In this document: piece after piece, positions 14,669 through 38,217 of the stretch
Position numbering within the stretch: the stretch's first letter is position 1
How the letters are laid out: the number at the start of each line of letters is the position of its first letter
IMG/VR virus record: IMGVR_UViG_3300028048_000105
DNA length: 64,000 nucleotides
From: a virus
Taxonomy: Duplodnaviria; Heunggongvirae; Uroviricota; Caudoviricetes
Reading direction: 5' to 3' (one strand)
Position numbers and translations under genes: made by a program
The notes under the pieces: generated by a model
The model's input: only the letters and a program-made list of their open reading frames with translations
Database searches by the model: none
Told to the model about the DNA's origin: nothing

Positions 14669-14757
14669 TCCATCCATGCGCCTCATAAGGCGCAACAAGC
14701 CGGTAGCATCCGCAGCCTGATTGCATTTTAACCCATACATCCCATAAGGGATGCAAC
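14669..14757 (-). CRISPR. Satellite mini-array: 2 repeats (degenerate TTTCCATCCATGCGCCTCATAAGGCGCAAC and TTTTAACCCATACATCCCATAAGGGATGCAAC) + 28-nt spacer
   Basis: Same family and orientation as the main array at 21722-22148; hairpin stems GCGCC/GGCGC and CATCCC/GGGATG. Confidence 0.5.
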
Positions 14758-14926
14758 TGTAAATATACTTACTACATAAAAGATAGGTGTTATTCTTTCG
14801 CTTTTTGGCTTTTCTTCTATTCATTTTTAATCATCCTCTTTAAATTCTTCTACGTTTTCCAACATGATCACTCTCGGTCTCACCAGTCCCGCCCACCGGC
14901 AGATATGTTCCAATTTATTTTATAAC

Positions 14927-15331
14927 CTATGTGTCTTTCTCTGAGGACTGTTTATTCAACTCTGCCTTAATCTTGTCTATAATTTCATTTATCGGTAATG
15001 CTGAAAAATACTCATCAAGTGTTATGCTGACTGCATCATTTCTTTTCCCGTAAAGTTGGAAAATAATATTTGTCTCTTTATCCATGTACTCTCCAAACTC
15101 TATAAGCTGATCTGAATACAGATAAACACACTCTTCGATTATGTATTGCTGCAGCTCATCATGTTCCTTTGGAATATTACTTTCCCACACGCATGATAAA
15201 GGACAATCCTGCGCATTGACTGGCTCATTATTGACTATCTTTTCATATAGTTCGGGCTCATTATCTCTTACGTTCGTAATTGTTTTATCCGATACAGTCC
15301 CATAAGTTTCATATTTCTTGAAAAGCCTCAT
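14927..15331 (-). CDS. hypothetical protein
   Basis: 134 aa ORF. Confidence 0.45.
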   Translation of the reverse strand: MRLFKKYETYGTVSDKTITNVRDNEPELYEKIVNNEPVNAQDCPLSCVWESNIPKEHDELQQYIIEECVYLYSDQLIEFGEYMDKETNIIFQLYGKRNDAVSITLDEYFSALPINEIIDKIKAELNKQSSEKDT

Positions 15332-15594
15332 ACTCCTTCAACAGTTTTTTCTGCTCAAAAATATCCTTGATAACAATTGACGCAAATACTACAAGAAGTA
15401 AAAGCGTTACGTTTGATGAATCCATAGCATATTTTTCTAATCCCGGTATAAGTCTTACTAACATAAAAATCTCCTTAAAACAATATTATACTCTCCAATT
15501 TGCAAATTTTAAATGAAAATCAAAATTAAAGGAATCAGAAATATCTTTTCAGCTAAGAAATATCAAAACACCCAAAAAAAGTTGCGGATATGTA

Positions 15595-16140
15595 TCAACC
15601 TCCAAGCTTTCCCAGTTCTTCTTCTATTTCTGCAATTTCTTTGCTAAAACTATTATAAATCTGTTCACTCACATCATCGTACTTTTGTAAATAATCCTGT
15701 AAATATATGAGTCGTTTTTCTAACCTTTCTCGTCTGCTGGAAGAATCTTGAACGGCATCTACAACCCCATCCCATTCAGCAGCTTTCTTTTCCATTTCAT
15801 TCAGCAAAGTCTGTTCAGACAATCTCTTCTCATATTCAGCGAATGCTTTCTTTATAATATCCGGAGAAAGAACAAATAACATCTGATTGCAACTAATATT
15901 ATGGAATGAAATGGATGGATCTATTACAGATTTAAAGTAGATTTCCCCTGCGTCGAACAGCCGTTTTCCAGAATGTCCAAACAAAATTGTTTTTTCCCTG
16001 TACTGGCATGTGTACACCTTAACGTACCCGGACACGACTCCATCTCTACCCCAAAGGAGATCAACAGCATACGCTTTTCCTTTCCACAACACCGGGTAAA
16101 ATGTATACCCATTGGGTATTTTTCTCTTTTGTATTCCCAT
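15595..16140 (-). CDS. hypothetical protein
   Basis: 181 aa ORF; coiled-coil C-terminus. Confidence 0.5.
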   Translation of the reverse strand: MGIQKRKIPNGYTFYPVLWKGKAYAVDLLWGRDGVVSGYVKVYTCQYREKTILFGHSGKRLFDAGEIYFKSVIDPSISFHNISCNQMLFVLSPDIIKKAFAEYEKRLSEQTLLNEMEKKAAEWDGVVDAVQDSSSRRERLEKRLIYLQDYLQKYDDVSEQIYNSFSKEIAEIEEELGKLGG

Positions 16141-16167
16141 TTTCTCTGATCCTTTCTTATTTTTGTT

Positions 16168-16389
16168 TTACGAATAATTGTATCCCAATATAATCGTTAA
16201 AACACCCCAAAAAAATGTGACAATACCGCCTATTAGACCAGCCCACCAAGAATCATCCTCATCGTCTTTAAGTTTAAATGAATTAACAACTAAAATAATT
16301 CCTAGAACAATTATGATGATTCCATGAACTGGCACTATGGAAGATAGGCAATTTTCTGCAAATTTATTGCATTTTTCGATTTGATTCAT
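16168..16389 (-). CDS. small membrane protein
   Basis: 73 aa, two hydrophobic segments. Confidence 0.4.
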   Translation of the reverse strand: MNQIEKCNKFAENCLSSIVPVHGIIIIVLGIILVVNSFKLKDDEDDSWWAGLIGGIVTFFWGVLTIILGYNYS

Positions 16390-16832
16390 TTTTCCGTTTT
16401 GACTCCTAATTCTTTACATTTTTCACAGGTTACCGCATTCAGACCTCTCCAAATTATATTCTCTGTTTGAAAATCTTCCCTATTTGAAGATCGCGAATAA
16501 CTCCATTTTTGACCACACAGGCATTCTGTCGCACACTTAGTTATATGTACAATCCCATTTAGTTTCACACATGGAATATCCCCGTAATATTTAGCCATCT
16601 TCCACCTCCAAATTTACTCAATGACAAAATCAAAATCAGTGCAGTTAAAGTCCGTTTCTTTTTCTGGAATCGGCATACATACTCCAACTGCATCTTTTAC
16701 ATATGGCACTCCGTTTATCTCAATAACTTCCATTGGATAATAACCGAAACGTCTTTTGTAACAATCAATCTTCTTGCCTACAAGTTCCTTTGCATTTCCT
16801 TGATATAATTTCACCCTGCACCTCCTAAATCA

Positions 16833-17444
16833 TCATGCTTCTGGTTTTTCGCACCGCTCAAATTCGATAACCCACACCCACGGATTTGCATCCCAACCAT
16901 ATGTATCAATGTCAGATTTCTTGACGGTGCTGTTCCAAAGAGTCGAAAACGCATATCTTTTTTCTTCTCCATTCAATGCATGAGGATATTCTACCTCTAC
17001 ACCCTCTCTGCAAATCTGCTCAGATGTAATATCCTGCAACCGCTCCACTCTCACACTCGTAACTTTAAGCCAGATACGCGCAGCTTCTTTCGGCATGTGG
17101 ATGGATGGGTGCCATATATGACTATCATTTTTAAAGCCACTTTCTGCTACTTCGTCCGCTCTAAAAACATACTGTTTATCTGAATTTAAAGCAATTGGAT
17201 ACCCCCAAGTTTCCCGGACATACAGGATATCGCCCGGCTCGCAAGGCAACTTAAAAAATTTCTCTCCATACCCATCTGCAAATGTACCTCTACACGATAT
17301 GTACCCTTTAGGTGTAAAAGCGGTATATCCCCATACTGCATCATCAGGAATAAAGCCTTTTACAATTCCTCTCGTTGCATCTTTTCTCCCGTCCAGAATC
17401 GCCCGAACCATTTCTGTATTGAATAAAATCGGTTTAATTGCCAC
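16833..17444 (-). CDS. ASCH domain protein
   Basis: N-terminal KPILFNTEMVRAILDGRKDATRG typical ASCH/PUA-like. Confidence 0.6.
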   Translation of the reverse strand: MAIKPILFNTEMVRAILDGRKDATRGIVKGFIPDDAVWGYTAFTPKGYISCRGTFADGYGEKFFKLPCEPGDILYVRETWGYPIALNSDKQYVFRADEVAESGFKNDSHIWHPSIHMPKEAARIWLKVTSVRVERLQDITSEQICREGVEVEYPHALNGEEKRYAFSTLWNSTVKKSDIDTYGWDANPWVWVIEFERCEKPEA

Positions 17445-17730
17445 CTATCACACCTGCCTTTCTTCTCGTTTCTGTCCTGTGTTTTGCATCATATCTGTTG
17501 TGGCATCTCTGGCATAACGCTCTAAGATTACTGTAATCGCAATTTTCCGGTGTATGGTCTAAATGCGCTATTGTCAGGACAACTTTTGAGCCATTTTCGC
17601 GAATAGCATAATTCTCAATTCCACAAAATTCACATTTATTATCTGCCCGCTTGAGAATGTCTTTTCGGATATCCTTCCAGTTTGCCGGATATCTTTTCCG
17701 ATTTTCTGGTTTAATTGGCATCCGATTCAC
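17434..17730 (-). CDS. HNH endonuclease
   Basis: CEFCG...HLDH...N..ALCQRCHNRYD. Confidence 0.7.
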   Translation of the reverse strand: MNRMPIKPENRKRYPANWKDIRKDILKRADNKCEFCGIENYAIRENGSKVVLTIAHLDHTPENCDYSNLRALCQRCHNRYDAKHRTETRRKAGVIGGN

Positions 17731-18094
17731 CTACTTTCTCAAAATAGAACTTAATCGGTTCTCTGTTTTCCTGCACCATACCGAATCTGACTGCGATATT
17801 GTATGTAGAAACATCTCTTTTCAGTCTGTCAGGTATCTTCTGCAACTCCTTTCTAAAGTCTTCTAAGTCCATCGTTGACTTATATCGATTGCATGAACCG
17901 CAGGACGGCATCAGGTTGCTTATGTCGTGTACGTCAATTCCGGTAAATTCTTCGGTGTACTCATAATTTCTAAGACAATGCAAATGATCTACATTAAAAC
18001 CTTTCTCCGGTATCTCACAGCCACAATAAGCGCAATGCCCATTGTATTTCGCATATACCTGTTTCCTTACGGTTTTAGGAATCGGTTTTCGCAT
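17711..18094 (-). CDS. HNH endonuclease
   Basis: CAYCGCEI...VDHLHC...CGSCNRYK. Confidence 0.7.
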   Translation of the reverse strand: MRKPIPKTVRKQVYAKYNGHCAYCGCEIPEKGFNVDHLHCLRNYEYTEEFTGIDVHDISNLMPSCGSCNRYKSTMDLEDFRKELQKIPDRLKRDVSTYNIAVRFGMVQENREPIKFYFEKVGESDAN

Positions 18095-18374
18095 CTACTC
18101 CACCGCCTTTCACAATCTCGATTGCTTCTTTCAGCACTTCAACAGCTTTTCTTTGCTGAAATTCTTCTGTTATCGTTCCGTTTTTCTTTTCATATTCAAT
18201 ACAACGTTCATGCGTCTGTATCCTCTTCTCCAACTGTTCTACAACCTTGTCTACATCATAGGCGGTTGGCATATTGTTAATCACATCTTTTACTGCATCA
18301 TAATCTTTCATGCTTTCAAGCCGTCCGCTTAAGTTGTCTAAAACCGGATCAGCGTCAATCAGTCTTCCCATCAT
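18075..18374 (-). CDS. hypothetical protein
   Basis: 99 aa ORF overlapping neighbours by a few nt (operon). Confidence 0.4.
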   Translation of the reverse strand: MMGRLIDADPVLDNLSGRLESMKDYDAVKDVINNMPTAYDVDKVVEQLEKRIQTHERCIEYEKKNGTITEEFQQRKAVEVLKEAIEIVKGGGVDAKTDS

Positions 18375-18570
18375 TCACCCTCCTGTTCCATGTTTCCTTT
18401 GCTTTTCCCTGCGCGTCCATCTTGTTAGGAAATTCTTTAATTTTTACATACGGACCAGCACATCCGCATTTACCGCATATAATCCTGTATCCTTCACTTC
18501 CCATTTTTCTTACACTCACTCTGCGGTCATGGCAGCCACAGAACGGGCATGACTTAAGTTCTTCGTTCAT
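18355..18570 (-). CDS. Lar-like restriction alleviation zinc-ribbon protein
   Basis: CPFCGCHD...CGKCGCAGP motif, 71 aa. Confidence 0.45.
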   Translation of the reverse strand: MNEELKSCPFCGCHDRRVSVRKMGSEGYRIICGKCGCAGPYVKIKEFPNKMDAQGKAKETWNRRVNDGKTD

Positions 18571-19031
18571 TCTTCATCACTCCAATTAAATTCAATTTCT
18601 TCTGCGCCATCAACACCTAACTGCTCGCACTTCGCTCTGGTAGATGTACCGCCGGAGTGGTTTGTGCCTAAAAGAAACAGTTCCTGTACAATGCGGAAGT
18701 ATGATTTTCTAAAACAAAACCTCTCTTCCTCGTCAAGTTCCTCAATCGCATCCTCTCCATGTTGCCATCTGTACCACTCTGCAAACTCATTAACCACTTC
18801 CTGCATAAGGCTAATACAGTATTCAAGAATGTGTTTTTCATCGTGACTTTCCAATTCCCTGTTGACGTTCTGTTTCTCCATTGCCGCCCGACATTCTTCC
18901 AGTGTGCCAATTGCACGGTACTGTTCAATTTCTTCAAGTGCATTGATTGCCATTTCAATCTCTTCTGGAAATGATGTTCCACTCTGTGCTCTGTAGCATT
19001 TCAAACATTCTATTGCTTCCTGCTCTGTCAT
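18567..19031 (-). CDS. hypothetical protein
   Basis: 154 aa ORF. Confidence 0.45.
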   Translation of the reverse strand: MTEQEAIECLKCYRAQSGTSFPEEIEMAINALEEIEQYRAIGTLEECRAAMEKQNVNRELESHDEKHILEYCISLMQEVVNEFAEWYRWQHGEDAIEELDEEERFCFRKSYFRIVQELFLLGTNHSGGTSTRAKCEQLGVDGAEEIEFNWSDEE

Positions 19032-19402
19032 TCTCCATCACCTACCTTTAACTGTTCTGCTATCTCATCAATGTCTTTAAACCTGATTACAGACAAATCT
19101 ACGATTAAATTTTTGACCGATTCTGCAAAATCATCAACCGCCTTGCAATATTCTTCTTTCAACATTTTCTGTGTCATATCTCCACTAAATACCGAAGCTC
19201 TGTATGATTTCAACTCTTCCAACCACTCCGCAAGCTGTTTCTCTTCTTTTTCCTTTGGAATGTAACTTTTCATGCCTAATTCTGAATTTTTTTTACTATC
19301 TTCTGCTCTTTTTTTAAATTCAGATATGGCTTCATCAATCGTCATCCTACACCTCCAACAGTTCCGAATTGTCAATTGCGTTTCCAATGGCAACAATTTC
19401 AT
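19028..19402 (-). CDS. hypothetical protein
   Basis: 124 aa ORF. Confidence 0.45.
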   Translation of the reverse strand: MKLLPLETQLTIRNCWRCRMTIDEAISEFKKRAEDSKKNSELGMKSYIPKEKEEKQLAEWLEELKSYRASVFSGDMTQKMLKEEYCKAVDDFAESVKNLIVDLSVIRFKDIDEIAEQLKVGDGE

Positions 19403-19742
19403 CTGGTCTGAATTCTCCTAAAGAAATACTTTCCGAGCTTCCAATCGCCCGTGCTTCCCAACAGAGTGAGTAATCGCACCATTCAATAACATATCTTTCA
19501 TCATCGCACTGAAAAATATCTTTTTCATAGATCCCCCTATACCCTGTGCATTGGCAGAAGGTTCCCGGAAATACCGGATAAAAAGCAATATCCTCTCCAT
19601 CCCATACCTCGATTTCTTCAATCTCGCCATCTTCATCGCAACTTGGCAAGCCTTCCACCCATTCGCCATTATCAATCCGCTTTCCGCGGAATAAATATCT
19701 ATTTTCCATGTTGTTCCTCCTTTTGACCGCAATCTGAGGCAT
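19347..19742 (-). CDS. YopX-like phage protein (start probably at the internal Met, about 19709)
   Basis: MENRYLFRGKRIDNGEWVEG N-terminus resembles YopX family. Confidence 0.4.
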   Translation of the reverse strand: MPQIAVKRRNNMENRYLFRGKRIDNGEWVEGLPSCDEDGEIEEIEVWDGEDIAFYPVFPGTFCQCTGYRGIYEKDIFQCDDERYVIEWCDYSLCWEARAIGSSESISLGEFRPDEIVAIGNAIDNSELLEV

Positions 19743-20184
19743 CTATGTTAATTCCAATTTTTTCAAAATAAAATTTAACCGGTTCAATATGTTCCCGTAT
19801 AAGTCCATACTTAATCGCCAGACGGTACTGAAATGTTTTTTGCAGGTTTCTCATTAGTGTGCTGGTTAATGCTTCACGGAAAGACTCCAGGTTACCACAT
19901 GACTTGTAGAAGTTACATTGCCGGCACGCAGGAAGCAGATTTTCTTCTGAATACATTTCCTTTTCTGTCATTGTATGACTGGCATCGGTATTAGCAAAAA
20001 CAGACTTAACATGATCCACCTGCATATCCTTGTATTCCAACTCACATCCACAGTATGCACACCGGTGGTTGCATTTTTCATACACCAGAAGCCGGATTTT
20101 CTTTGGTATCTTTTTATGTGCTGACATTATTTCACCACCCTTCATTTTTTGAATCCGTCCATCGAATTCGCTGACCGCATTCAA
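19699..20184 (-). CDS. HNH endonuclease
   Basis: CAYCGCEL...VDHVKS...CRQCNFYK. Confidence 0.7.
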   Translation of the reverse strand: MNAVSEFDGRIQKMKGGEIMSAHKKIPKKIRLLVYEKCNHRCAYCGCELEYKDMQVDHVKSVFANTDASHTMTEKEMYSEENLLPACRQCNFYKSCGNLESFREALTSTLMRNLQKTFQYRLAIKYGLIREHIEPVKFYFEKIGINIDASDCGQKEEQHGK

Positions 20185-20329
20185 TACAGATATCAGGATT
20201 GATCAAACGTGCCCCGCATGTCGGACAGGCATATACAGGCTGGGTCCACCCTATCCGATTTGCATATTTTGGAATTTCCTTATTTTTTCTTCTTTTTCCC
20301 ATTTTTATCTTTCCCCTCTGACCTGTCAA
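20132..20329 (-). CDS. zinc-ribbon protein
   Basis: CPTCGAR...CIECGQR. Confidence 0.4.
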   Translation of the reverse strand: MTGQRGKIKMGKRRKNKEIPKYANRIGWTQPVYACPTCGARLINPDICIECGQRIRWTDSKNEGW

Positions 20330-20561
20330 ATTTTATCCCGAATGTATTTTTTATAAGAATAACCATGCCATAAATTGCCAAAATGATAAGCATAACGGCA
20401 ATTATTCCGCAAAAACATATTGTTAAAAGTGCAGTAATAGCTATAAGGGCATCTATACCATATACAATAGAAAGAATAATTGACAAAATTAGAAAAATGA
20501 TGACAAAAATAAGAATCAGAAAATCTCCAAAGTTATTTTTATTCTTTATATAAATCCTCAA
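20280..20561 (-). CDS. small membrane protein
   Basis: 93 aa, hydrophobic I/L-rich. Confidence 0.4.
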   Translation of the reverse strand: MRIYIKNKNNFGDFLILIFVIIFLILSIILSIVYGIDALIAITALLTICFCGIIAVMLIILAIYGMVILIKNTFGIKFDRSEGKDKNGKKKKK

Positions 20562-20572
20562 GACCTGACCTC

Positions 20573-21295
20573 CTAATATTCCACGGTTCTTGTTTTGACA
20601 TTCTGGCTGACGGGGATTAAAATCTCACTCTTTACAGAAGTGGAATGGTATTTCTTATCGCCTGGAGCCTTGATGGCAAGATCATAAACAACTGATAAGC
20701 GTTCAGCATATGTCCCAACTTTAATAATATTGAGTTCTGTCAAACGTTTATAAGTACTGCTTACAGTTCCGAAATCTCCACATGCATACCCCCACAACTG
20801 GTAAAACTGGTCTGTGTATCCTTCTATTGCAAAAGTTCGGTAATAACTTGTTTTATTATCAATCACAAAACCGTCCTGGGTGTTTCCGTGGAAAGAATTA
20901 TCCATGGAATCCTGTGTAATACCGTTGATCTGCGGAGATGTACTTACAAGCGAGATGTCTGCATGCATATGCTCCACCATAACATCATACCCATCCGGTA
21001 AATTTTTGGTATGCACATTCATGTTAATCGACTTTGCATCCGTTACATGCCAGTTTTTCAAAGAATACTTTCCCGTATCATACTTACATATCAATGAGAA
21101 ATCTTCTCCATTTACAAGAAGATTCTGTGTTAAGTTTGGAATACTTACAGTGTCATTGCTGTTTTCGGTATTTTGTAAAACATCAGTCTGTGTATCTACT
21201 GGAACATATTCCTCCTCATAGGAACATCCTGTAAAAGCACCCGTCAAAAGTGCTGCAGAAAGTACCAATCCTATTAACTTTGTTCTTTTCTTCAT
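20573..21295 (-). CDS. lipoprotein (signal peptide + lipobox)
   Basis: MKKRTKLIGLVLSAALLTGAFTGCS; module A promoter at 21391-21420 upstream. Confidence 0.55.
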   Translation of the reverse strand: MKKRTKLIGLVLSAALLTGAFTGCSYEEEYVPVDTQTDVLQNTENSNDTVSIPNLTQNLLVNGEDFSLICKYDTGKYSLKNWHVTDAKSINMNVHTKNLPDGYDVMVEHMHADISLVSTSPQINGITQDSMDNSFHGNTQDGFVIDNKTSYYRTFAIEGYTDQFYQLWGYACGDFGTVSSTYKRLTELNIIKVGTYAERLSVVYDLAIKAPGDKKYHSTSVKSEILIPVSQNVKTRTVEY

Positions 21296-21506
21296 ATTTT
21301 TCCCTCCGTTACTGTTACTGTAATGTTTTTAAACATTGAGTTAACTAAATTAAGATTTAAAAGAACTCCATGTTTATCCATTACAATATACATATTGCGC
21401 CATCTTCCAAATCGTCAAAAGGCTTTGGAAACTTTTTTTATTTTTTTTCAAAAATTTTCCCACATACAAAAAAGCTGCCCCTGAAAGAGACAGCTTTTAC
21501 AGCGAG

Positions 21507-21692
21507 TTACTTTTGAATTTTTTGGATCAGCTCGTTAACATCCACAGTATACAGCTTCGGCTTTCCGTCCGGATCAAGTTCCTGGACCATGCTCTGCCCG
21601 ATACTGTCGGCATACACTCCGAAACAACTTTTGTACGACTGCATCCAGACCGTCTCATCCTCGCTAATAATCGGAAGATCATCCTTCAGCAA
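21507..21692 (-). CDS. truncated paralog of the C-terminal domain of lipoprotein 36119..36496
   Basis: shares ..VWMQSYKSC.G..A.SIGQSMVQELDPDGKPKLYT.D.NELI.K.QK with 36119..36496. Confidence 0.4.
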   Translation of the reverse strand: MLKDDLPIISEDETVWMQSYKSCFGVYADSIGQSMVQELDPDGKPKLYTVDVNELIQKIQK

Positions 21693-21721
21693 TTACTCAT
21701 TTTTTCTAATTTATTTTCCTT

Positions 21722-22148
21722 AATCCATATACCCCTCGCGGGGCGCGACTACCTTCCCCGAAGGTATGGATTTGTCACAATTTTTTCAACCCATGCACCC
21801 ATAAGGGATGCAACGTTTTACCATGGAGAAGATACAAAGGGCAGCAGTGATTTCAACCCATACATCCCATAAGGGATGTAACGAGTAACTCAAAAATGTT
21901 ATGATCATATTAAAAATATTTCAACCCATACATCCCATAAGGGATGTAACGAGGAGTACAAAAAACGCTCGATGCGGTATTCTCTATTTCAACCCATACA
22001 CCCCTTGTGGGGTGCAACTCGCGCTGTTTATGGATCTGCCACAGGAATTTCAACCCCTGTACCCCTCGTGGGGGTACAACGTGAAAAATATGGTGTTCCT
22101 CATTTTATATATTTGTTTCAACCCATGCGCCCCTCCACGGGGCGCCAC
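21722..22148 (-). CRISPR. CRISPR array, 7 repeats (one degenerate), type I-C-like repeat (minus strand GTTGCATCCCTTATGGGATGTATGGGTTGAAA)
   Basis: Repeats at 21722-21750 (degenerate), 21784-21814, 21851-21882, 21919-21950, 21987-22018, 22048-22080, 22116-22148; spacers 29-36 nt; repeat stems differ by compensatory changes. Confidence 0.8.
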
Positions 22149-22397: not shown

Positions 22398-23309
22398 TTA
22401 AATCATGCGCGTCATCGTCACACCGCCCGGGATTGCATCCTCATGGATCTTTACGGTGTAATCAGAGTATTTGCGAGGAAACTCGACATCATCGTTCTTC
22501 TTGACATCAACTGCTTCAAATAGCTTGTAGGAAGGACAGTTGCCGAGTTCGCTGTCATGCCTGAATACAATCAGCTCACGTACCGCCATCTTCCCGCGTG
22601 CTGCGGAATGGTCATTTTCAAACATATTGATGATGGCTTTCCAGAGAAGATCCAGATCATCTTCGGAAAAACCGGTGGTCTTGCGGGCAAGGTTGGCAGA
22701 AACATATCCTTCCACGCGGTAGAGACCATAAGGGATAATGCTCTTTCTTCCCATCTCGGTGTTCTTCTTTTCCGCATCCTTTTCAGTTGTGATCGCAACT
22801 CTGGTTACGGTAATATCCTGGCTGAAAACAGGATCAATACTTTTTGCAAAGCCAATCTGTACCGGGCCGCGTACCTGTCCACAGTTTAATGCCGCCTTTG
22901 TAAAAGTGGTCATAACAGCACCGAATGTACGGATATCGTAGTAGTTGCTGCACATATAGTCACGGAGCTTAAGGTCTACGTTCTCATCGGTCTTTTTCAG
23001 TTTCTTGACATCCTCAAGTGCCTTCTTACTGTCATCAACATCAACACCAAGGTTTTCGATTGCCTTAAGATCGCTGCGGTTCAACGGAATACCCTCTTTG
23101 ATGTAGATCTTGAAACCGTCTGCATCCTCCTTTGCGGTTTCCACATAGTTGCGGATCTTTCGCTTTAAGCAGGCGTCTGTCACAAGACCGATGCCGGTCT
23201 CTGGATCAACCCTTGGCATGTTTGCGGCATCCGGATCGCCGTTTGGGTTTCCATTCTCTACGTCAAATAATACTACAAAATCATATCTGTTCTGAATCGG
23301 TTTGCTCAT
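22398..23309 (-). CDS. cas7: Cas7 (Csd2), type I-C
   Basis: MSKPIQNRYDFVVLFDVENGNPNGDPDA..VDPETGIGLVTDACLKRKIRNY is the Csd2 N-terminal signature; GGAGG RBS; ORF-track start 23468 is an upstream extension. Confidence 0.85.
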   Translation of the reverse strand: MSKPIQNRYDFVVLFDVENGNPNGDPDAANMPRVDPETGIGLVTDACLKRKIRNYVETAKEDADGFKIYIKEGIPLNRSDLKAIENLGVDVDDSKKALEDVKKLKKTDENVDLKLRDYMCSNYYDIRTFGAVMTTFTKAALNCGQVRGPVQIGFAKSIDPVFSQDITVTRVAITTEKDAEKKNTEMGRKSIIPYGLYRVEGYVSANLARKTTGFSEDDLDLLWKAIINMFENDHSAARGKMAVRELIVFRHDSELGNCPSYKLFEAVDVKKNDDVEFPRKYSDYTVKIHEDAIPGGVTMTRMI

Positions 23310-27966: not shown

Positions 27967-27996
27967 TTTCAACCCATGCACCGCATAGGGTACAAC
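27967..27996 (-). CRISPR. Solo CRISPR repeat (TTTCAACCCATGCACCGCATAGGGTACAAC), degenerate stem
   Basis: Immediately 3' of stop codon of 27996..28358 gene; preceded on plus strand by a module B variant TTTCATGTTAAATGTGAC. Confidence 0.45.
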
Positions 27997-28358
27997 TATT
28001 TTCTCTCAACTACATTGAACTTCTTTGTTTTCTCAAATCGCGGCATTTCATTCTCATGGTAATCCGCGGATACATTACAGAGCATATCCCGAAGATTAAT
28101 CCAGTTAATCTTAATCACAGTCATCTCGACCGCTTTTGAACCATCGGAAACCAGTATTTTCTCTCCAAATTTGATTACCGGCGTTTCCACATCTGCATCC
28201 ATACGGAAAGTTAACTCTGTCCGGACCATTTTCCCTCTTGGTTCTTCCTCGTAATGCAGGCAGTTCCTTACGTTCTCAAAACAGCGACCTCCCTGCGAAA
28301 AGTGTTTTTTGCAGGTCAAACATTCCATTTCGTGTTTCCTCCTTCTTTCATAACACAT
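27996..28358 (-). CDS. hypothetical protein
   Basis: 120 aa; module A variant promoter at 28355-28386. Confidence 0.5.
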   Translation of the reverse strand: MCYERRRKHEMECLTCKKHFSQGGRCFENVRNCLHYEEEPRGKMVRTELTFRMDADVETPVIKFGEKILVSDGSKAVEMTVIKINWINLRDMLCNVSADYHENEMPRFEKTKKFNVVERK

Positions 28359-28465
28359 ATTGAGCCTTTTACGACTTCGTCAAAAAGTTTCCGGAAACCT
28401 TTTAAATATTTTTGTCATTTCATATTAAGAATGTAAACAAAACCATTCACGAAGGGAGAAAAATC

Positions 28466-29265: not shown

Positions 29266-29677
29266 AATTGATTAAAATGAAAGGAAAAGAAAACCATGTT
29301 AAAGATAATGAGTTGTAAAAATTTTAATAATGATTATAGAACATATGGCGATTTCAGCAATATGTTTACTTTCTCATGCTCAAAATCAGGAAAAACATGG
29401 GGACAGAACGATTACTATACACCTTCCCGCAGTCGATTTCGATTTTAAACCAGGCACTTAAAACCGAAATATTGCAAAGCGCAGATGGCCGCGGAGAGAA
29501 GAAATTTCTTGATGCGGCTTTTTTATTGTTGAAAAAGTCATGGACAGGTAGCTGAGATGGATTAGCGAGGGACTGAAAATCCTTACAGGGTGGATCATTA
29601 CCACTCCTGTCCACTCCGCAGCGATGCGGTAAAAAACTGAATGGATAAGAGAAAACAGGCACTTCTTTTATCCGTAT

Positions 29678-29749
29678 GCATGTGAAGTGTTGTTGGCGGC
29701 ACACCTGCCTTCCAAGCAGGACGGGCGGGTTCGAGACCCGTCACATGCT
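29678..29749 (+). tRNA. tRNA-Gly (anticodon TCC)
   Basis: Manual fold: acceptor GCATGTG/CACATGC, anticodon loop CTTCCAA, T-arm GCGGG-TTCGAGA-CCCGT. Confidence 0.65.
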
Positions 29750-29750
29750 C

Positions 29751-29822
29751 TGATCCGTAGCTCAATGGTAGAGCACCCGGCTGTTAACCGGGGCGTTGAG
29801 GGTTCGAGTCCCTCCGGATCAG
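29751..29822 (+). tRNA. tRNA-Asn (GTT)
   Basis: acceptor TGATCCG/CGGATCA, D-arm TAGCTCAATGGTAGAGC, anticodon loop CTGTTAA, T-loop TTCGAGT. Confidence 0.75.
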
Positions 29823-29827
29823 CTCAT

Positions 29828-29909
29828 GCGTTGGTAGTCCAGCGGCGAAGACAGCTGACTGTAAATCAGCCACAAAGAAACACCGGAGGTTCGAGTCCTC
29901 CCCAGCGCA
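29828..29909 (+). tRNA. tRNA-Tyr (GTA), long variable arm
   Basis: anticodon loop CTGTAAA, long variable arm, T-arm GGAGG-TTCGAGT-CCTCC. Confidence 0.7.
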
Positions 29910-29913
29910 CTAT

Positions 29914-29986
29914 ACTTCCGAGGACAAACAGCAGAGTCACCGCCCTGTCACGGCGGAGATAGCGGGGTCAGCACCCGTCGGAAGTG
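29914..29986 (+). tRNA. noncanonical tRNA-like, anticodon GTC (Asp); possible pseudogene
   Basis: Good acceptor (ACTTCCG/CGGAAGT) and anticodon arm (CCGCC-CTGTCAC-GGCGG) but D-loop lacks GG and T-loop is GTCAGCA. Confidence 0.4.
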
Positions 29987-29991
29987 TTCCT

Positions 29992-30064
29992 GCTCCTGTA
30001 GCACAACTGGCAGTGCATCTGATTTGTAATCAGAAGGTTTCCGGTTCGAAGCCGGACGGGAGCT
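29992..30064 (+). tRNA. tRNA-Thr (TGT)
   Basis: anticodon loop TTTGTAA, T-arm TCCGG-TTCGAAG-CCGGA, acceptor GCTCCTG/CGGGAGC (one G-U). Confidence 0.7.
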
Positions 30065-30068
30065 TTAT

Positions 30069-30140
30069 GGATCTGTAGTATAAAGGCTATTACACCCGGC
30101 TGTCTACCGGAAAACGAGGGTTCGATTCCCTCCTGATCCG
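30069..30140 (+). tRNA. tRNA-like, anticodon GTC (Asp) with several stem mismatches
   Basis: canonical T-arm GAGGG-TTCGATT-CCCTC; acceptor with one mismatch; anticodon loop CTGTCTA. Confidence 0.45.
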
Positions 30141-30145
30141 CTCAT

Positions 30146-30219
30146 GTGCCTGTAGCTCAGTTGGCAGAGCACGCGACTTTTAATCGCGGTGGCGTCGGGT
30201 TCAAGTCCCACCAGGCACA
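30146..30219 (+). tRNA. tRNA-Lys (TTT)
   Basis: D-arm TAGCTCAGTTGGCAGAGCA, anticodon loop CTTTTAA, acceptor GTGCCTG/CAGGCAC. Confidence 0.7.
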
Positions 30220-30462
30220 CTAAATATTGAAAAATTCAAGGAAAGGAAGGAAAAACAATGATGACAACAGAAATGAGACAGTGTCCACAGAGAAGTATCA
30301 GTCAGCCGCAGTCATGCAGCTGGCGCAGTTGTCGTGCTCGTAAATACCGTCTCAAATTGAAAGAAATGTGGTCATTGCCTGGGAATTTCTGGGAAAATGT
30401 TGGAAATACTTAAGAAAACGGGGCATACATCTTTCGATTGAGAGGTGTGTGCCTTTATTTTT

Positions 30463-30545
30463 GCTGTACTGGCTCAACCGGAAAAGCAGCGGTCTTAAAA
30501 CCGCCATTCCGAAAGGATATTAGGGTTCGAATCCCTGGCACAGCG
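30463..30545 (+). tRNA. tRNA-Leu (TAA), class II
   Basis: anticodon loop CTTAAAA, long variable arm, T-arm TAGGG-TTCGAAT-CCCTG. Confidence 0.65.
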
Positions 30546-30576
30546 CTCTCCTCCCTTATCAGGGGAACCCATATAT

Positions 30577-30648
30577 GGCATCATAGCCAAACGGCTAAGG
30601 CGTCCGGTTGCAACCCGGAAGGTGAGGGTTCGATTCCCTCCGATGCCT
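30577..30648 (+). tRNA. tRNA-Cys (GCA)
   Basis: anticodon loop TTGCAAC, T-arm GAGGG-TTCGATT-CCCTC. Confidence 0.65.
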
Positions 30649-30653
30649 CTTAT

Positions 30654-30743
30654 GCAGACATATAAAGGTAACTGGTACCCCTCCACACTGCTAATGTGGC
30701 ATGCGGCACAACCGCTGTCCGGGTTCGAACCCCGGTGTCTGCG
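30654..30743 (+). tRNA. tRNA-Ser (GCT), long variable arm
   Basis: acceptor GCAGACA/TGTCTGC, anticodon loop CTGCTAA, T-arm CCGGG-TTCGAAC-CCCGG. Confidence 0.7.
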
Positions 30744-30749
30744 CTATAT

Positions 30750-30817
30750 ACACCTGTCTGATGGACAGAAAGTGGTCTCCAAAACCGCCAACGAGGGTTC
30801 GATTCCTTCCGGGTGTG
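30750..30817 (+). tRNA. noncanonical tRNA-like, anticodon CCA (Trp), shortened D-arm
   Basis: anticodon loop CTCCAAA, T-arm GAGGG-TTCGATT-CCTTC; only 68 nt. Confidence 0.4.
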
Positions 30818-30902
30818 CTCCTTTGTTCTCTTTGCTCACGGGCACGAATCGTGTGGGCGACGCCAGACTTTTCTGTAATTTCATTTAAAAAAGGGATATC
30901 CG

Positions 30903-32876: not shown

Positions 32877-33188
32877 ATATTTTCCCTCACATTCTTTATG
32901 AAATTTTTAAATTGCTATATACGTATATTTTTTAAAAATTAACACTCAATAAGCACCACTGCTCCTTTCAAAGCACAAACACTGACTATTGTGCTTCCAA
33001 AATTTTATTATTTCGTCTTCATTACGTATATTGCGCCATCTGTATAAACGTCAAAATTTTTTACATATTTTTGAAAATTTTTTTAAAATAAAAAAAGAAC
33101 CTCATCCAAAGGCTCTTTTCTTACGATAAAACTTACAAGAATGCTCGTATATTCAATATACGAGATGAATTGTGCGAAGCCACACACT

Positions 33189-34722
33189 CTACGCAACAAA
33201 TACAAGCCCCTCGTTGTGTCTTATGATCCGGCATTTCTTTGCCGGGTAGTTTGTTTTCTTATCACCATACACACGAAGATACTGACCGTTTGACAACTGC
33301 CCGGACAATACATGGTATTCACCCATGTATTCGAACAGGGCACCAGGCATCAGACGGTCCGGATTGTTGTAACGTCTTGTGCTCTTCTCAACGGTCAGCT
33401 GCGACCGCATCCGGTCTGCCTCTTTCCGGCCATGACATTTAACCTGTTCTTCATACCAGCCGGAAAGTGACGGGCACTTTTGTTCAAACCGCGGTCTGCG
33501 GTTCTTTGCAATGATCTTTCCATTGAGTCTGTATGTCCTCTCCCTCTGGTTATTGATAATTGCACGGTCATGTCTCCGGAACTGTACGATTTTATGTACA
33601 TAGGTAAACCCCGGGGCTGCCGCCGGTATCAAACCGGCACCAAGGCAGGCAATGCAGAAAGCATCTGCTTCGTGCATTTGGTTATCCTTTGTCTTTTCAT
33701 AGCCAAGGGACTGTCTTGCCATGGAAGTATCCCTGCCTGTGCAGGCATTCAGGTGTTCCGTGTCGACATGTTCTGAAAGGCTGCTCCAAATATACGGGAT
33801 TGCCTGGTTTAACACACTTAAGGCACCGTACTTTTTCAGGATACCGGCTTTCAGTTTCTCAAGCCGTGCTTTTGCATCAGGACTGGTATGTACCTTTCCG
33901 TGACAGCATTCACACAGCCCGGCGATGTTCTTTAAGGTATTGGAGCCGCCCTGTGACCGTGGCACGATATGATGGAAATGTCCGATATCGTTTCCACACA
34001 GAAGACATTTGCCGTGCTGCTGGTCATAAACTGCAGCATTGACATCCCCGTAGCCTTTCAGCGGTCCGTTCTGGAAATCAATGCCGGAAGTTTCCGGATC
34101 ATCCATTAATGCAAATGCAAAACGGTTGACTTCCAATGTCACATCCGTGACCGGAAGAAACTTCTGGATTTTTTTAATCACGTTAACATGGGTTTTCACA
34201 AGCTGTCCTGCGCTCGGGGTGAGCCATCCGGCTTCCCTTACCCGGTTGCAGAACCGTGCCTGTGTATTCCGGATAATCCTGCATGTGACGAACTTATCTG
34301 CAGCGTACTGTGGAAGTTTCCGCATGACCATGCCGGCTTTCAGCATGGTGCCAAAACGTCTGGCAAGCCGTTGGCGTGCCTTGCGTTCGCCATTGCGTGA
34401 CGCCCGGCGGTGTGCCCGGCGCTCATCGACCAGCTTTTTGATGTCCTTGTTGCGGGTTTCCACAACTGCCGAGAATACAGGTTCCGCATTTTCGTTGACC
34501 ACGCTTACGCCGATGTTGGTGCGTCCCGGGTCAATGCCTGCCATAAGTGGCTGCAGAACCGGCTCATTCTCATAAAGCAGCTGTATGGTGTAAGGAATGC
34601 GGCAGGCAATCCTTGCCTTACCAGCATCAAGCAGCTTTTTGATATATCTTTTCCTTTTTGTCGGCATCTGCGGTTTCCCGTCCCTGCCAAGCACATATAT
34701 GTAGTCTGTATCCGGCATGTGA
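33189..34722 (-). CDS. iscB: IscB (OMEGA RuvC-HNH RNA-guided nuclease)
   Basis: PLMP-like N-term, RuvC-I GIDPGRTNIGVSV, Arg-rich bridge helix, HNH CLLCG..HHIVPRSQGG..N..LCECCH; start at M-PDTDYIYVL with AAGGAGGG RBS (ORF-track 34919 start is an extension through the ωRNA). Confidence 0.85.
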
Positions 34723-34995
34723 TGCCCTCCTTTTTGTTTCATTAAATGTTGCGTGCAGTACCGCCGTCCAGCGTATCGGACAGCACCGGTTGTAAACCTG
34801 TGCACACCTTGTCGTACTGTTTCCCTAAGCTGGGTGGACACTCTGCATTGTGCCGGACTGGGAAAATCCGGCAGTGCCTGCCTTGTGACACGTATCCATC
34901 CATGCTTCTGCTCAACCACCAGTCAGACTGGATGATTCAGCAGCTCCGAAGAACCGCTTCCTCATGCTCGGTTATTCAATTGCCGAGTTTGGTTG
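34723..34995 (-). ncRNA. candidate IscB ωRNA #1
   Basis: about 270 nt structured noncoding region immediately 5' of iscB, beginning at the element-end hairpin; by analogy with described IscB ωRNAs. Confidence 0.5.
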
Positions 34996-36104: not shown

Positions 36105-36118
36105 CTTTGCGGATCTGA

Positions 36119-36496
36119 TTACTTTTGGAACTTCTTGATCAGCTCGTTAATATCCCCGGTATACAGCTTCGGCTTTCCATCCGGATCAAGTTCCTGGACC
36201 ATGCTCTGTCCAATACTGATGGCATACATTCCGGATCCGGAACAGCTTTTGTACGACTGCATCCACACCGTCTTATCTTTGATATTAACAAACTCCGTAA
36301 TCACCGTCGGATCTTCATCGTTGTTATCGACCTTCTGCTCGGAAATTGGAAGAAACGTAACATCCCCGCTTAATTTATATGATTCATCAGACAATAATGT
36401 CCCTTTCGCAATATCCGGCATCCGGCATCCGCCGATGAATAATCCGCTGCAGAAAATACATCCAATGACTGCAAACATCCCAATTCTTTTCCTCAT
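36119..36496 (-). CDS. lipoprotein
   Basis: signal peptide MRKRIGMFAVIGCIFCSGLFIGGC; C-terminal domain shared with 21507..21692. Confidence 0.5.
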   Translation of the reverse strand: MRKRIGMFAVIGCIFCSGLFIGGCRMPDIAKGTLLSDESYKLSGDVTFLPISEQKVDNNDEDPTVITEFVNIKDKTVWMQSYKSCSGSGMYAISIGQSMVQELDPDGKPKLYTGDINELIKKFQK

Positions 36497-36816
36497 CTGT
36501 TTTCTCCTCCTGTTTCTGATATTTTCCCGATTTTTTCCCGCATTACCCGATATTTCTCCGCAAACGACATATATCGTTTAATAAGATTTTCCCACGGCAC
36601 ATCCACGCAATGGCGATCCCTGTGTGCTTCCCATTTTCCTTTATCCAAGGCCATTACTTCTTTAATCGTACAAAAACCACGGATTTTCTGTGACCCGCTT
36701 TCGAGAAGCGCAATCTCTTCTCCTACATGGGAAGTCCTGCATCCGCGGATCTCCAGAGTCTTTTTTCCGGACATGATTAAATCCAGCCACTTTTTCTTAA
36801 TGATAAGACCATACAT
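36493..36816 (-). CDS. ASCH domain protein
   Basis: LIIKKKWLDLIMSGKKTLEIR motif. Confidence 0.5.
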   Translation of the reverse strand: MYGLIIKKKWLDLIMSGKKTLEIRGCRTSHVGEEIALLESGSQKIRGFCTIKEVMALDKGKWEAHRDRHCVDVPWENLIKRYMSFAEKYRVMREKIGKISETGGENR

Positions 36817-37253
36817 TACGTTTCACCTATTTCCGGTTCCTTAACCTCAATCTGCTTGAATACAGCTTCGCCATCTTCAATGTAAATCAAGGTAGGATCG
36901 TAAAATTCTTCATATCTCGTGTAGCCAATGAATCCAAAGGTACAGATATGTGGTGCCAGCCAGTCAATGAACTTTTTGATTTCGGAATCTTGATTTATTA
37001 AGTTAGCCCTGATATTGACTTTCCATGTATTCGAAATATTATCGAATTTCATTTTGCTGCAGGTTTTTCCACCAAAATAATAACTGTCACAGCATGCAAT
37101 ACCGAACCATCTGTCACATTTAAAAAAATCGTGATCCGGTAATTCTGTTGGCATTTCTGTGCCTTCAATAAGGTATTGCAGAATATTCACTATTTTCTCC
37201 GGTGTATTTTCAAACATATCAAAACATACGTTAATTTCCGTGTAATTTCCCAT
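36816..37253 (-). CDS. hypothetical protein
   Basis: 145 aa. Confidence 0.45.
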   Translation of the reverse strand: MGNYTEINVCFDMFENTPEKIVNILQYLIEGTEMPTELPDHDFFKCDRWFGIACCDSYYFGGKTCSKMKFDNISNTWKVNIRANLINQDSEIKKFIDWLAPHICTFGFIGYTRYEEFYDPTLIYIEDGEAVFKQIEVKEPEIGET

Positions 37254-37289
37254 TGTAAGTTACTCCTTTTCCGACAGCCGGGATGCCGG

Positions 37290-37826
37290 CTACCATATCG
37301 TTACAGCTTTTCTCTTTCCTGCCTTTTCTCCTGCCGGATGGTATTCTCTATCCTGTTTCGACCGCTCAAAACTTTCATGCACGCTTAAGGAGTTTCCTTT
37401 GCCATACGCAAATGTATTCCCCGCACCCGTCTGGCGTTTCTGCATGGCTGCACTCGGCCGCCAAACAGCCTGTACTGTTCTGGCAGTTTGTGGAAATGTT
37501 TCCGCAGTATCAGTTGATTTGGATGATAAGCCATGGGGTTCCCCAAAAAGACGGGTATGCTGGTATTCCTTAAACTCTTCTTCCGTAAGTACGGATTTTA
37601 TAAGTACCCGGTAGATAAAAGGATGTTCCGATTTAACTTCAATTTTCCCGTTTAAAACGAGTTCCCCAAGTATGCGTTTCATTCGTGCAGGATAACTTTT
37701 CATCTCTTCGCTTAATTTTTTATATGATATTTTCTTCCAGCTGATATTTTCTCCAGTCCCGGCGCTTTTCAGGTTGTGTTCAAGTACGTATACCATTGCT
37801 TCATAATCTTTTATTGTTTCCATCAT
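37290..37826 (-). CDS. hypothetical protein
   Basis: 178 aa. Confidence 0.45.
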   Translation of the reverse strand: MMETIKDYEAMVYVLEHNLKSAGTGENISWKKISYKKLSEEMKSYPARMKRILGELVLNGKIEVKSEHPFIYRVLIKSVLTEEEFKEYQHTRLFGEPHGLSSKSTDTAETFPQTARTVQAVWRPSAAMQKRQTGAGNTFAYGKGNSLSVHESFERSKQDREYHPAGEKAGKRKAVTIW

Positions 37827-37835
37827 ATATCCCTC

Positions 37836-38135
37836 CTACGGACGAATATGGAATCCGAACGAAAAACGTTCATTGATCTCTTTTCGGATCATGTCCATTA
37901 CTTTCGGGTCATTTGTGTAGAACATTGGAATCCCGGTACCATCCGGTTTGCATTCAATTCCTTTTTTTCGGATCTTTTCTATAATCTTTTCCTTTTCACT
38001 TGCCGGAGGGATATATGATGGCACCTCCGGTGTTTCTGATGCTTTCTTTGGCATATTATATCTCCTTGCTTTATATTTTATATTCTTTTCTGTCACCATC
38101 TTTTGTGGTACCAGACAATATTTCAACCCATACAT
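37836..38135 (-). CDS. hypothetical protein (start probably internal; ORF-track start lies inside a CRISPR repeat)
   Basis: 99 aa ORF. Confidence 0.35.
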   Translation of the reverse strand: MYGLKYCLVPQKMVTEKNIKYKARRYNMPKKASETPEVPSYIPPASEKEKIIEKIRKKGIECKPDGTGIPMFYTNDPKVMDMIRKEINERFSFGFHIRP

Positions 38136-38217
38136 CCCATAAGGGATGCAACTATATCTATGCAGGCAGCGACGATTCAGTATAATATTTCAACCCTGCA
38201 CCCTTGCGGGGTGCAAC
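38121..38217 (-). CRISPR. Satellite mini-array: 2 repeats (38121-38152, 38188-38217) + 35-nt spacer
   Basis: TTTCAACCCATACATCCCATAAGGGATGCAAC and TTTCAACCCTGCACCCTTGCGGGGTGCAAC; perfect hairpins; located between two co-oriented ORFs. Confidence 0.6.

Follow-up and report, generated by a model that had tools for sequence, protein, structure and literature searches.

The DNA examined here is a stretch of 64 kb (hereafter the window), part of an 81.5-kb metagenome contig (ERZ27252073 k141_1291562) from a mobile element. [quoted passage not shown] An earlier note on this sequence had pointed to four further sites at which repeats of the same family stand alone or in pairs inside unrelated operons, and these satellite repeats are the subject of the present analysis. 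A covariance model (R1) was built from 13 aligned repeat copies (alignment A1) and used to score every position of the window with filters off. Exactly 13 matches were obtained, all on the minus strand, seven of them in the main array and six in satellites. The satellites had E-values of 1e-8 to 1e-13, and the next best minus-strand match had an E-value of 0.83. A search with the repeat consensus, allowing up to three mismatches, gave four matches in the window compared to 0.00 expected from shuffles. The satellites are therefore genuine members of the element's own type I-C repeat family. The features of the locus, with repeat scores from R1, are as follows (aa, amino acids; ORF, open reading frame; UTR, untranslated region):

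38187-38217, minus: satellite repeat GTTGCACCCCGCAAGGGTGCAGGGTTGAAAT, first in the transcript of a two-repeat mini-array (37.5 bits, E 6e-9)
38153-38186, minus: 34-nt spacer ATTATACTGAATCGTCGCTGCCTGCATAGATATA of this mini-array, of canonical I-C length and between two foldable repeats
38120-38152, minus: second satellite repeat of this mini-array (51.1 bits, E 3e-13)
27966-27996, minus: solo repeat sharing 1 nt with the TAG stop codon of a 110-aa ORF (27996-28328) (38.5 bits)
~26870-26943, minus: relic of a decayed two-repeat mini-array upstream of a 290-aa ORF, its hairpin gone (10.6 bits, E 2)
25926-25958, minus: solo repeat 7 nt past the stop codon of the 290-aa ORF (25966-26838) (35.9 bits)
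25730-25757, minus: degenerate repeat hairpin GTTGCATCTTCGGATGTATGGATGATGA in the cas5 5'UTR, found by reading the sequence (weak R1 match at 25732-25757, E 0.83)
25047-25706, minus: cas5c, above the Pfam/NCBIfam cut-off, product 63% identical to the Roseburia protein by tblastn
23311-25050, minus: cas8c (Csd1), above the Pfam/NCBIfam cut-off, product 49% identical to the Roseburia protein by tblastn
22398-23309, minus: cas7 (Csd2), above the Pfam/NCBIfam cut-off, product 77% identical to the Roseburia protein by tblastn
21720-22148, minus: main array downstream of cas7, with six spacers (34, 28, 35, 35, 35 and 33 nt) and seven non-identical repeats matched by R1 (22115-22148, 22047-22080, 21986-22018, 21918-21950, 21850-21882, 21783-21814, 21720-21749)
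14725-14757, minus: satellite repeat, first of a second mini-array (49.4 bits)
14697-14724, minus: 28-nt spacer GCAATCAGGCTGCGGATGCTACCGGCTT (34 minus 6 nt) between the repeats of the second mini-array
14666-14696, minus: satellite repeat, second of the second mini-array, with a 7-bp hairpin (36.8 bits)

Read on the minus strand, the repeats start with GTTGC, continue into a GC-rich hairpin and end in ATGGGTTGAAAT. Their length of about 32-33 nt, the 6-8-bp GC-rich hairpin and the 11-nt handle ending in TTGAAA(T/C) fit the type I-C form (A1, A2, R1), the Roseburia I-C repeat used for comparison being GTCGCTCCCCTTGTGGGAGCGTGGATTGAAAT. All four sites described earlier exist, with coordinates that sequence reading and R1 shift by 1-3 nt, and the R1 scores bear out their kinship with the array beside cas5-cas8c-cas7. 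Their uniform orientation also held (13 of 13 R1 matches); taken alone it says little, since the minus strand carries almost every gene between 14.6 and 38.2 kb. Every copy falls within these ~24 kb surrounding the cas genes; the distance to the operon ranges from 0.05 to 13 kb for the satellites, the 25926 copy being 220 nt upstream of cas5. Two degenerate copies, at 25730-25757 and ~26870-26943, had been missed earlier. No further copy was found at record positions 1-3849 and 67850-77797 of the contig or in the related contigs fetched alongside.

The satellites follow the layout of transcription units. A pattern search for the promoter-like motif TTGACGA-N10-GGCGCAATATGT returned ten copies in the window, all on the minus strand, compared to 0.05 expected. 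Homology around several of them reaches 60-200 bp, and the conserved GGCGCAATATGT box suggests recognition by an element-specific sigma factor or regulator. The motif copies, and the units predicted from five of them, are:

1956-1984, 21390-21418, 25808-25836, 27884-27912, 28355-28383, 33026-33054, 38751-38779, 41367-41395, 48292-48320 and 60227-60255, minus: copies of the promoter-like motif
Unit from 38751-38779: 101-aa ORF, mini-array 38217-38120, 72-aa ORF, further genes
Unit from 28355-28383: 110-aa ORF, then solo repeat 27966-27996
Unit from 27884-27912: 178-aa ORF, relic ~26943-26870, 290-aa ORF, then solo repeat 25926-25958 and terminator 25907-25867
Unit from 25808-25836, the cas promoter: 5'UTR hairpin 25730-25757, cas5-cas8c-cas7, main array, then terminator 21498-21470
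Unit from 21390-21418: about 15 small ORFs, then mini-array 14757-14666 and, from reading the sequence, a terminator-like hairpin at ~14603-14634

Four consecutive units thus terminate in repeats and a fifth has repeats after its first gene. The satellites read in the sense direction and close successive units at their 3' ends, apart from one that is internal to a unit and one that belongs to the cas5 5'UTR, and none has a family promoter of its own (0 of the ten motif copies). The earlier description of individual sites was accurate: the 25926 repeat lies beside a strong predicted terminator (25907-25867, 19 pairs plus a T run in a terminator scan), the 27966 repeat directly follows a stop codon, and mini-array 38120-38217 lies between the same-strand 101-aa (38257-38562) and 72-aa (37836-38054) ORFs, whose only nearby family promoter is the upstream copy at 38751-38779. 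No terminator is predicted between cas7 and the main array, the first one past the array being that at 21498-21470. The 110-aa ORF has no match in Pfam, NCBIfam, PADLOC, PDB or PHROGs; the 290-aa ORF has none in Pfam, NCBIfam, PADLOC or PDB, and matches one PHROGs family of unknown function.

Further observations concern the sequence past the repeats. The gap between repeat and terminator hairpin is ~34 nt after the 14666 copy (14603-14665) and ~18 nt after the 25926 copy (25867-25925), a layout that resembles the "repeat, spacer-like sequence, terminator" form of viral type V-A RNAs that are similar to CRISPR RNA (crRNA). At the 14666 unit, the repeat, the ~34 nt and the terminator hairpin would mimic a crRNA with the terminator as its 3' hairpin. 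Past the 25926 repeat and overlapping the terminator stem, 18 nt on the minus strand (25895-25912) are identical to Roseburia cas1 (13639-13656 in loci L016-L018; blastn-short E 9e-5), with flanks that do not match (22/36).

Comparison with related contigs indicates that two satellite sites are conserved and that copy number per site varies. Relatives with an identical Cas8c keep both solo repeats wherever the contig spans those sites; the 27966 copy is conserved in close relatives L001-L005 and L019, and the 25926 copy is found in L001-L005, L007-L010 and L019. A sister lineage with a Cas8c that is 88% identical is represented by eight contigs from independent samples (L011, L021-L025, L027 and L028) and is syntenic with the window. 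It carries repeats at the same intergenic sites: a pair follows the 110-aa ORF, another pair precedes the 290-aa ORF and four copies follow the latter. Its main array holds 11-13 repeats, and its cas5 5'UTR also has a hairpin. In this lineage, a 38-nt spacer lies between the two repeats at the 27966 junction and three spacers lie among the four repeats at the 25926 site, and the satellites are identical in at least seven independent samples. The 1-nt overlap of stop codon and repeat at 27966 is kept between the two lineages, which are 85% identical in DNA. Two sites being kept in close relatives and 2-4-repeat arrays occupying the same places in the sister lineage, the possibility raised earlier that the repeats are fossils without conservation does not hold.

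The same comparison points to recombination as the source of the differences. Homology between the lineages is interrupted precisely where the 27966 repeat begins and picks up again just past this repeat, and the window relic at ~26870-26943 aligns with an intact mini-array of the sister lineage (L022 6930-7034). Contig L010 lacks window positions 14758-21849 (7.1 kb with ~15 small ORFs), so that its array joins the 14698 spacer directly (L010 4286-4445). The repeat at this junction is a hybrid, its 5' part (GTTACA...) from the array repeat at 21850 and its 3' part (...TTAAAAT) from the satellite at 14725, which marks the deletion as the product of recombination between a repeat of the array and one of the satellites. 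Main arrays and satellites also share content. Spacer TCAATAGAAACAGATGCATTCGAAGGCGTTACAA, which begins with TCAATAGAAACAG, is found in the four-repeat satellite of the sister lineage (L022, L024, L025 and L027) and, with three changes, in the main array of L026; the 38120-38152 repeat is identical in sequence to one in the L019 main array (13162-13194) and to one at L026 6687-6719; and L006, L019 and L026 differ in internal main-array spacers. Depending on the lineage, a site holds anywhere from 0 to 4 copies. The satellite sites are dynamic: they expand, collapse to solo repeats, decay and join deletions, behaviour more in keeping with birth and death through recombination than with a processing network made by design. 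In the sister lineage, the cas7-proximal end of the main array is polymorphic between samples and the repeats there are identical (L022 array 12904-13615), which suggests ongoing spacer acquisition, presumably by host Cas1/Cas2 in trans.

A possible separate trace of rearrangement lies next to the main array. The sequence between its last repeat and the terminator (21511-21659) resembles the 3' end of a 125/130-aa gene at 36119-36496, as if a past rearrangement had left a piece of a gene behind. The likeness is indirect, through 86% identity of L035 to 21511-21659 and 83% identity of the L019 post-array stretch to 36119-36288.

Despite strong sequence divergence, the repeats keep their hairpin. 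In an alignment of 131 matches comprising 48 distinct repeat variants (A2; fitted to the model and hence somewhat biased), 95.9% of the cells are standard pairs, six of the seven pairs have changed on both sides and 36 cells are compensatory. None of 500 shuffles reached these values and slid registers collapsed; compensatory change thus preserves the hairpin in a family of 48 variants, and the RNA structure is under selection. For five of the six satellites the canonical 7-8-bp hairpin is the predicted minimum-energy structure, as in 38187-38217 with an 8-bp hairpin of -12.6 kcal/mol. For the 27966 repeat, the predicted minimum-energy and centroid folds differ from the canonical one and the 6-bp stem was read by eye; a U-G pair in this stem is U-A in L019. 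The cas5 5'UTR hairpins of the two lineages have wholly different stems that nonetheless both pair, GCATC/GATGT in the window and GTGCCCC/GGGGTGC in the sister lineage. The latter scores 27.7 bits with R1, and the window hairpin is weak (-5.8 kcal/mol, z -0.19). It was also observed that single arrays hold strongly heterogeneous repeats, identical copies occurring in the sister lineage only next to cas7. Such heterogeneity within an array is unusual and fits long retention without the homogenising effect of acquisition.

The operon itself encodes a Cascade without nuclease or adaptation genes. Cas5 matches solved I-C chains named as pre-crRNA processing endonuclease (E 2e-66). In tblastn searches whose query proteins came from L016, a complete I-C locus of Roseburia type, and which also gave the identities listed above, cas3, cas4, cas1 and cas2 had no match in the window, in the ±10-kb flanks of ten relatives or in ~14 kb of the contig outside the window, in agreement with the nuclease-less Cascade described before. 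The inverted repeat GTGCGAA...TTCGCAC of Roseburia I-C leaders is kept in the 250 nt downstream of cas7, as would be expected if a complete I-C locus had lost cas4, cas1 and cas2 and become separated from cas3. Three other genes were considered and rejected as missing components. The helicase at 38850-41153 is RadD-like or type-I-restriction-like and reaches only 26 bits with a "possible alternative Cas3" model, a 337-aa HD protein elsewhere on the contig has no similarity to host Cas3 that would make it a Cas3 HD domain, and the 290-aa ORF has a single distant homologue (L052, 38% identical) without nearby repeats or cas genes, which does not recommend it as a hidden Cas accessory.

Considering these data jointly, we favor reading the satellites as recombination-born auxiliary arrays of the element's own Cas3-less and adaptation-less I-C system, expressed by read-through; we give this composite reading an even chance of being correct. 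The two-repeat units are probably guide units and the solo repeats are probably collapsed arrays. Having no promoter of their own, satellites would be transcribed by read-through from the upstream genes, and the element's Cas5c would cut at the 3' base of each hairpin. Units 38120-38217 and 14666-14757 hold what a crRNA requires (handle, 34- or 28-nt spacer and 3' hairpin) and would each yield one crRNA to be loaded into the element's Cascade, which, without a nuclease of its own, might act as a DNA-binding repressor or borrow a host Cas3. At 27966 and 25926, the solo repeats would be arrays stripped of all spacers, still cut or bound, and giving no guide. The one-spacer guide units proposed in the earlier note are thus plausible for the two-repeat sites, given the 34-nt spacer and the occurrence of a satellite spacer in the main array of a relative. 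Since most sites follow the last gene of a unit, no regulatory purpose is required, and cleavage of operon mRNAs at the satellites may be a side effect. Through the repeat-repeat recombination described above, satellites arise, shrink and swap content with the main array. The conserved hairpin of the cas5 leader is the best candidate for real cis-regulation.

Several observations weigh against this reading. Transcription, cleavage and loading of the satellites are all steps that we infer, and the deviant 3' handles of several satellites (TAAAAC, TTAAAAT and TGGAAAT) could impair recognition by Cas5 or Cascade. The 38120-38217 site was seen only here and at the end of L037, a contig that breaks inside the 38120-38152 repeat; the variant L035, with other genes upstream, does not have it. 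For the 14666-14757 unit, L010 was the one other contig in which it was seen. Between the window and L019, the solo repeats differ by about 1 nt in 31-33, compared to a background of 3.7%, a divergence no less than background and therefore no sign of extra constraint. A Cas3 elsewhere on a larger element may exist, as the element may be 138-199 kb long. Finally, the satellite and main-array spacers of the window had no protospacer among GenBank phages, in PLSDB, in the window or in related and host-type loci totalling 675 kb, and none was found for four spacers in IMG/VR, databases that may lack the actual targets. The satellite spacers proposed earlier for searching against this contig and phage databases have thus yielded no target.

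Regulation of the element by its own guides was examined in full-length scans (identity of at least 64-67%), in a seed scan that skips every sixth base, and in a scan of the ten promoters with shuffled controls. Window spacers and the sequences following solo repeats gave no matches of the seed proximal to the protospacer-adjacent motif (PAM) to the ten promoters beyond the controls, and no partial matches in the window or in L022 beyond chance for the satellites. Self-targeting or CreR-like regulation by the satellite spacers of the window was rejected on this basis, nothing being above chance in any of the three scans. A conserved main-array spacer of the sister lineage, beginning with ACCAAAATCTTTTGAC, does match the element's promoter family, the cas promoter included, with 15 contiguous PAM-proximal nt and 25/35 overall (shuffles: mean 22.1, standard deviation 0.7, maximum 24):

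L022 13143-13177: promoter-matching spacer, against the -35 region (PAM TTT or GTT) at window 25813-25847 and 60232-60266 and at L011 4799-4833 and 1599-1633

This spacer could represent CreR-like self-regulation or a capture from a rival element with a diverged promoter. Two weaker likenesses, both of ~68-69% ungapped identity and marginal with respect to shuffles, were recorded for main-array spacers: window spacer 21816-21849 against 25076-25110 (plus strand) at the cas5/cas8c junction, and L026 spacer 6788-6824 against 23737-23773 (minus strand), where a ribosome-binding site and an ATG within cas8c possibly mark an internal Cas11 start. All three best partial matches fall within the cas operon, and their spacers belong to main arrays and not to satellites.

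Other explanations of the satellites share part of this evidence. They might be non-functional debris, neutral scars of array fragmentation and repeat-mediated rearrangement now decaying: one site (26870-26943) has already decayed, solo repeats resemble collapsed arrays and diverge at the background rate, no spacer target was found, and the 38120 site is missing from L035. However, the six satellites keep perfect 6-8-bp hairpins with differing stem sequences (that of 27966 read by eye), and covariation over the 48 variants far exceeds shuffles. In addition, at least seven independent samples have identical sister mini-arrays in spite of turnover at the leader end of the main array, and the 1-nt overlap of stop codon and repeat survives between lineages that are 85% identical. 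We therefore regard pure debris as unlikely. Less credible still is the earlier suggestion that the embedded repeats serve as Cas5d cleavage or binding sites that process or regulate operon mRNAs, the cas5 5'UTR hairpin being autoregulatory. It would account for the sense orientation of every copy within transcription units, for the copy between two co-transcribed ORFs and for a repeat-derived hairpin ~25 nt upstream of the cas5 start that both lineages keep with a wholly changed stem, and Cas5 is a close homologue of solved pre-crRNA endonucleases. Nevertheless, most copies lie past the last gene, just before a terminator or the next promoter, where cutting changes little; copy number per site ranges from 0 to 4 across lineages; and the 5'UTR hairpin of the window is weak. 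We find this very doubtful as the general role of the satellites. A broader proposal is that the repeats serve the element to organise its genome and control its RNA: its Cas5/Cas7 would cut or bind the hairpins at operon ends and in the cas5 leader, thereby adjusting the fate of mRNAs and providing autoregulation of Cascade, and the repeats, together with the ten promoter copies at operon starts, would be portable homology blocks for the deletion or swapping of operons, of which the 7.1-kb loss in L010 would be an example. It is quite improbable in our estimation; if true, it would give a Cas3-less Cascade a post-transcriptional and recombinational role beyond guiding.

The remaining two alternatives come from known RNAs of mobile elements. 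A solo I-C repeat that lies 11 nt past acrIC5 and shares its transcript has been proven to be an RNA anti-CRISPR (Racr) (Camara-Wilpert et al., 2023; PMC10651486), and the solo repeats here could likewise be decoys, co-transcribed with small ORFs, that soak up host I-C Cas5 and Cas7. As in RacrIC1, a solo type I-C repeat on a mobile element directly follows a small ORF in the same transcript (here predicted), in a promoter-driven unit that mirrors the acrIC5-racrIC1 bicistron; the handle of the likely host repeat (TGGATTGAAAT) is one base from that of the element (TGGGTTGAAAT), and Cas7 and Cas5 are 77% and 63% identical to the Roseburia proteins. Unlike in RacrIC1, the element encodes its own cas5-8-7 and arrays, whose variants the solo repeats match instead of the host repeat. 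The copies adjoin the element's cas genes, an association that the definitions of Racrs and of solitary repeat units (SRUs) exclude. Moreover, the same sites carry true spacer-bearing arrays in the sister lineage, and the upstream ORFs fit no known family, no acr gene being recognised here. A decoy role is thus hard to credit. Guides of the CreR/CreA type, with mini-array spacers pairing partially with element or host promoters and Cascade acting as repressor, seem to us similarly far-fetched for these units, even if a Cas3-less Cascade suits repression, the two 28-nt spacers (34 minus 6) have a length often seen for such guides, and at 14666-14757 and 38120-38217 two repeat-like sequences flank a spacer-like one near the cas locus. 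The match of a main-array spacer to the promoter family (PAM TTT) also favors this idea, but that spacer belongs to the main array of another lineage, not to a satellite, and may stem from a rival element; window spacers showed neither seed matches to the ten promoters beyond shuffled controls nor partial matches anywhere in the window or L022. Viral crRNA-like arrays (Cracrs), for which a layout of single repeat, spacer-like sequence and terminator was described, provide a related precedent (Liu et al., bioRxiv 10.1101/2024.10.29.618823). They too are short mobile-element arrays, some with shortened spacers. In contrast to this element, which encodes its own Cascade, they hijack host Cas proteins, and their at least nine PAM-proximal matches to host cas or creT promoters had no counterpart here in the host-type loci searched, which included one I-C locus of Roseburia type in three copies. 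Decoy and regulatory-guide roles are possible, yet each fails at least one defining test made here.

Auxiliary arrays born by recombination, the reading that we favor, also have precedents. Virus-borne mini-CRISPR arrays reportedly act in inter-virus conflicts through spacers that match related viruses; the mini-arrays described here are likewise one- or two-spacer arrays on a mobile element, but no protospacer was found for them in the databases searched. Standalone repeat-like sequences occur in 34% and mini-arrays in 7% of I-C loci, and a recombinational origin was proposed for them (PMC10120712). The window resembles these loci in the presence of two-repeat units and repeat-like copies near a type I cas operon, with a distal repeat that is often degenerate, conservation in related loci and an origin via repeat recombination. 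It differs in the number and spread of sites (at least six to eight over 24 kb, at the 3' ends of unrelated operons), in their location on a mobile element without Cas3 and Cas1/2/4, and in the lack of a partial cas-promoter match for the window units. Passages of Al-Shayeb et al. (2020; PMC7162821) describe huge-phage type I-C variants without Cas1, Cas2 and Cas3. Like the present locus, these are mobile Cas5d-based Cascades with compact arrays, and repression without cleavage or use of host proteins was proposed for them in those passages, as it is here. According to the same passages, a helicase replaces Cas3 beside their cas genes, whereas the nearest helicase here (38850-41153) is 13 kb away, and the passages matched by a term search do not mention dispersed satellites. 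Given the standalone repeats and mini-arrays (PMC10120712), the Cas3-less phage I-C systems (PMC7162821, in the passages cited) and the acrIC5-racrIC1 layout (PMC10651486) already known, it was an overstatement to call the arrangement unusual. What is new is the combination of many satellites at operon 3' ends, a Cascade-only mobile element, diverged repeats that keep their hairpin, and array-satellite recombination with spacer exchange. It illustrates array evolution without adaptation machinery, in which repeats diverge but keep the hairpin and arrays fragment, collapse and exchange spacers. It also gives a clear view of the birth of standalone repeats, the raw material for Racr, CreR and Cracr-type RNAs, and a good natural system for asking what nuclease-less Cascades do on mobile elements.

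The element that carries the system is a large mobile element of uncertain type. The window encodes ten tRNAs, two IscB proteins, a type I restriction-modification system, a C5 methyltransferase, RecJ, a Mob_Pre relaxase and two transposases, and no phage structural genes were seen among the genes identified. No close relatives of the window were found among GenBank phages or in PLSDB, and IMG/VR gave no Cas8c relatives and zero matches to the repeat pattern. Relatives are present on human-gut contigs of up to 138 kb, and a 199-kb contig encodes an 86% homologue of the 290-aa gene. The element is frequent in metagenomes of the human gut: the exact Cas8c sequence occurs in 33 blocks of a metagenome collection, the Cas8c cluster has ~366 members, and samples that carry the element include those behind OODT01000091.1 and OCGZ01000057.1. 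Among chromosomal Cas8c proteins, the nearest (~50% identical) are from Roseburia, Eubacterium and other Lachnospiraceae, and human-gut Lachnospiraceae with complete I-C loci are the likely hosts. In GTDB representative genomes, the exact element-type repeat pattern had one match (L045 4639-4671, on contig CAYLRF010000017.1 of a Faecalimonas metagenome-assembled genome). It sits at the end of a contig whose remainder shares nothing with the window, and is a weak hint at the host genus.

Other features of the element were noted in passing. Both IscB genes (41654-43117 and 33189-34919, minus strand), which encode RNA-guided OMEGA endonucleases, have RRXRR and HNH domains and exceed the guided_IscB cut-off of NCBIfam (327.7 and 210.1 bits, cut-off 175); Rfam at gathering thresholds returned only tRNAs in the window, in a search that was not aimed at IscB omega RNAs. 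The ten tRNA genes form a cluster at 29542-30818 (plus strand; recorded together with L048 1536-2918), and one of them (30463-30546), for which ARAGORN gives an anomalous anticodon, nevertheless scores 34.9 bits as an Rfam tRNA. Another part of the contig encodes a CCA-adding enzyme, and the related contigs L050 and L051 encode an NAD-dependent DNA ligase. Three blocks of iteron-like 24-bp tandem repeats (9460-9790, 7033-8088) adjoin the Mob_Pre relaxase gene and may mark a plasmid-type origin, which bears on the plasmid or phage nature of the element.

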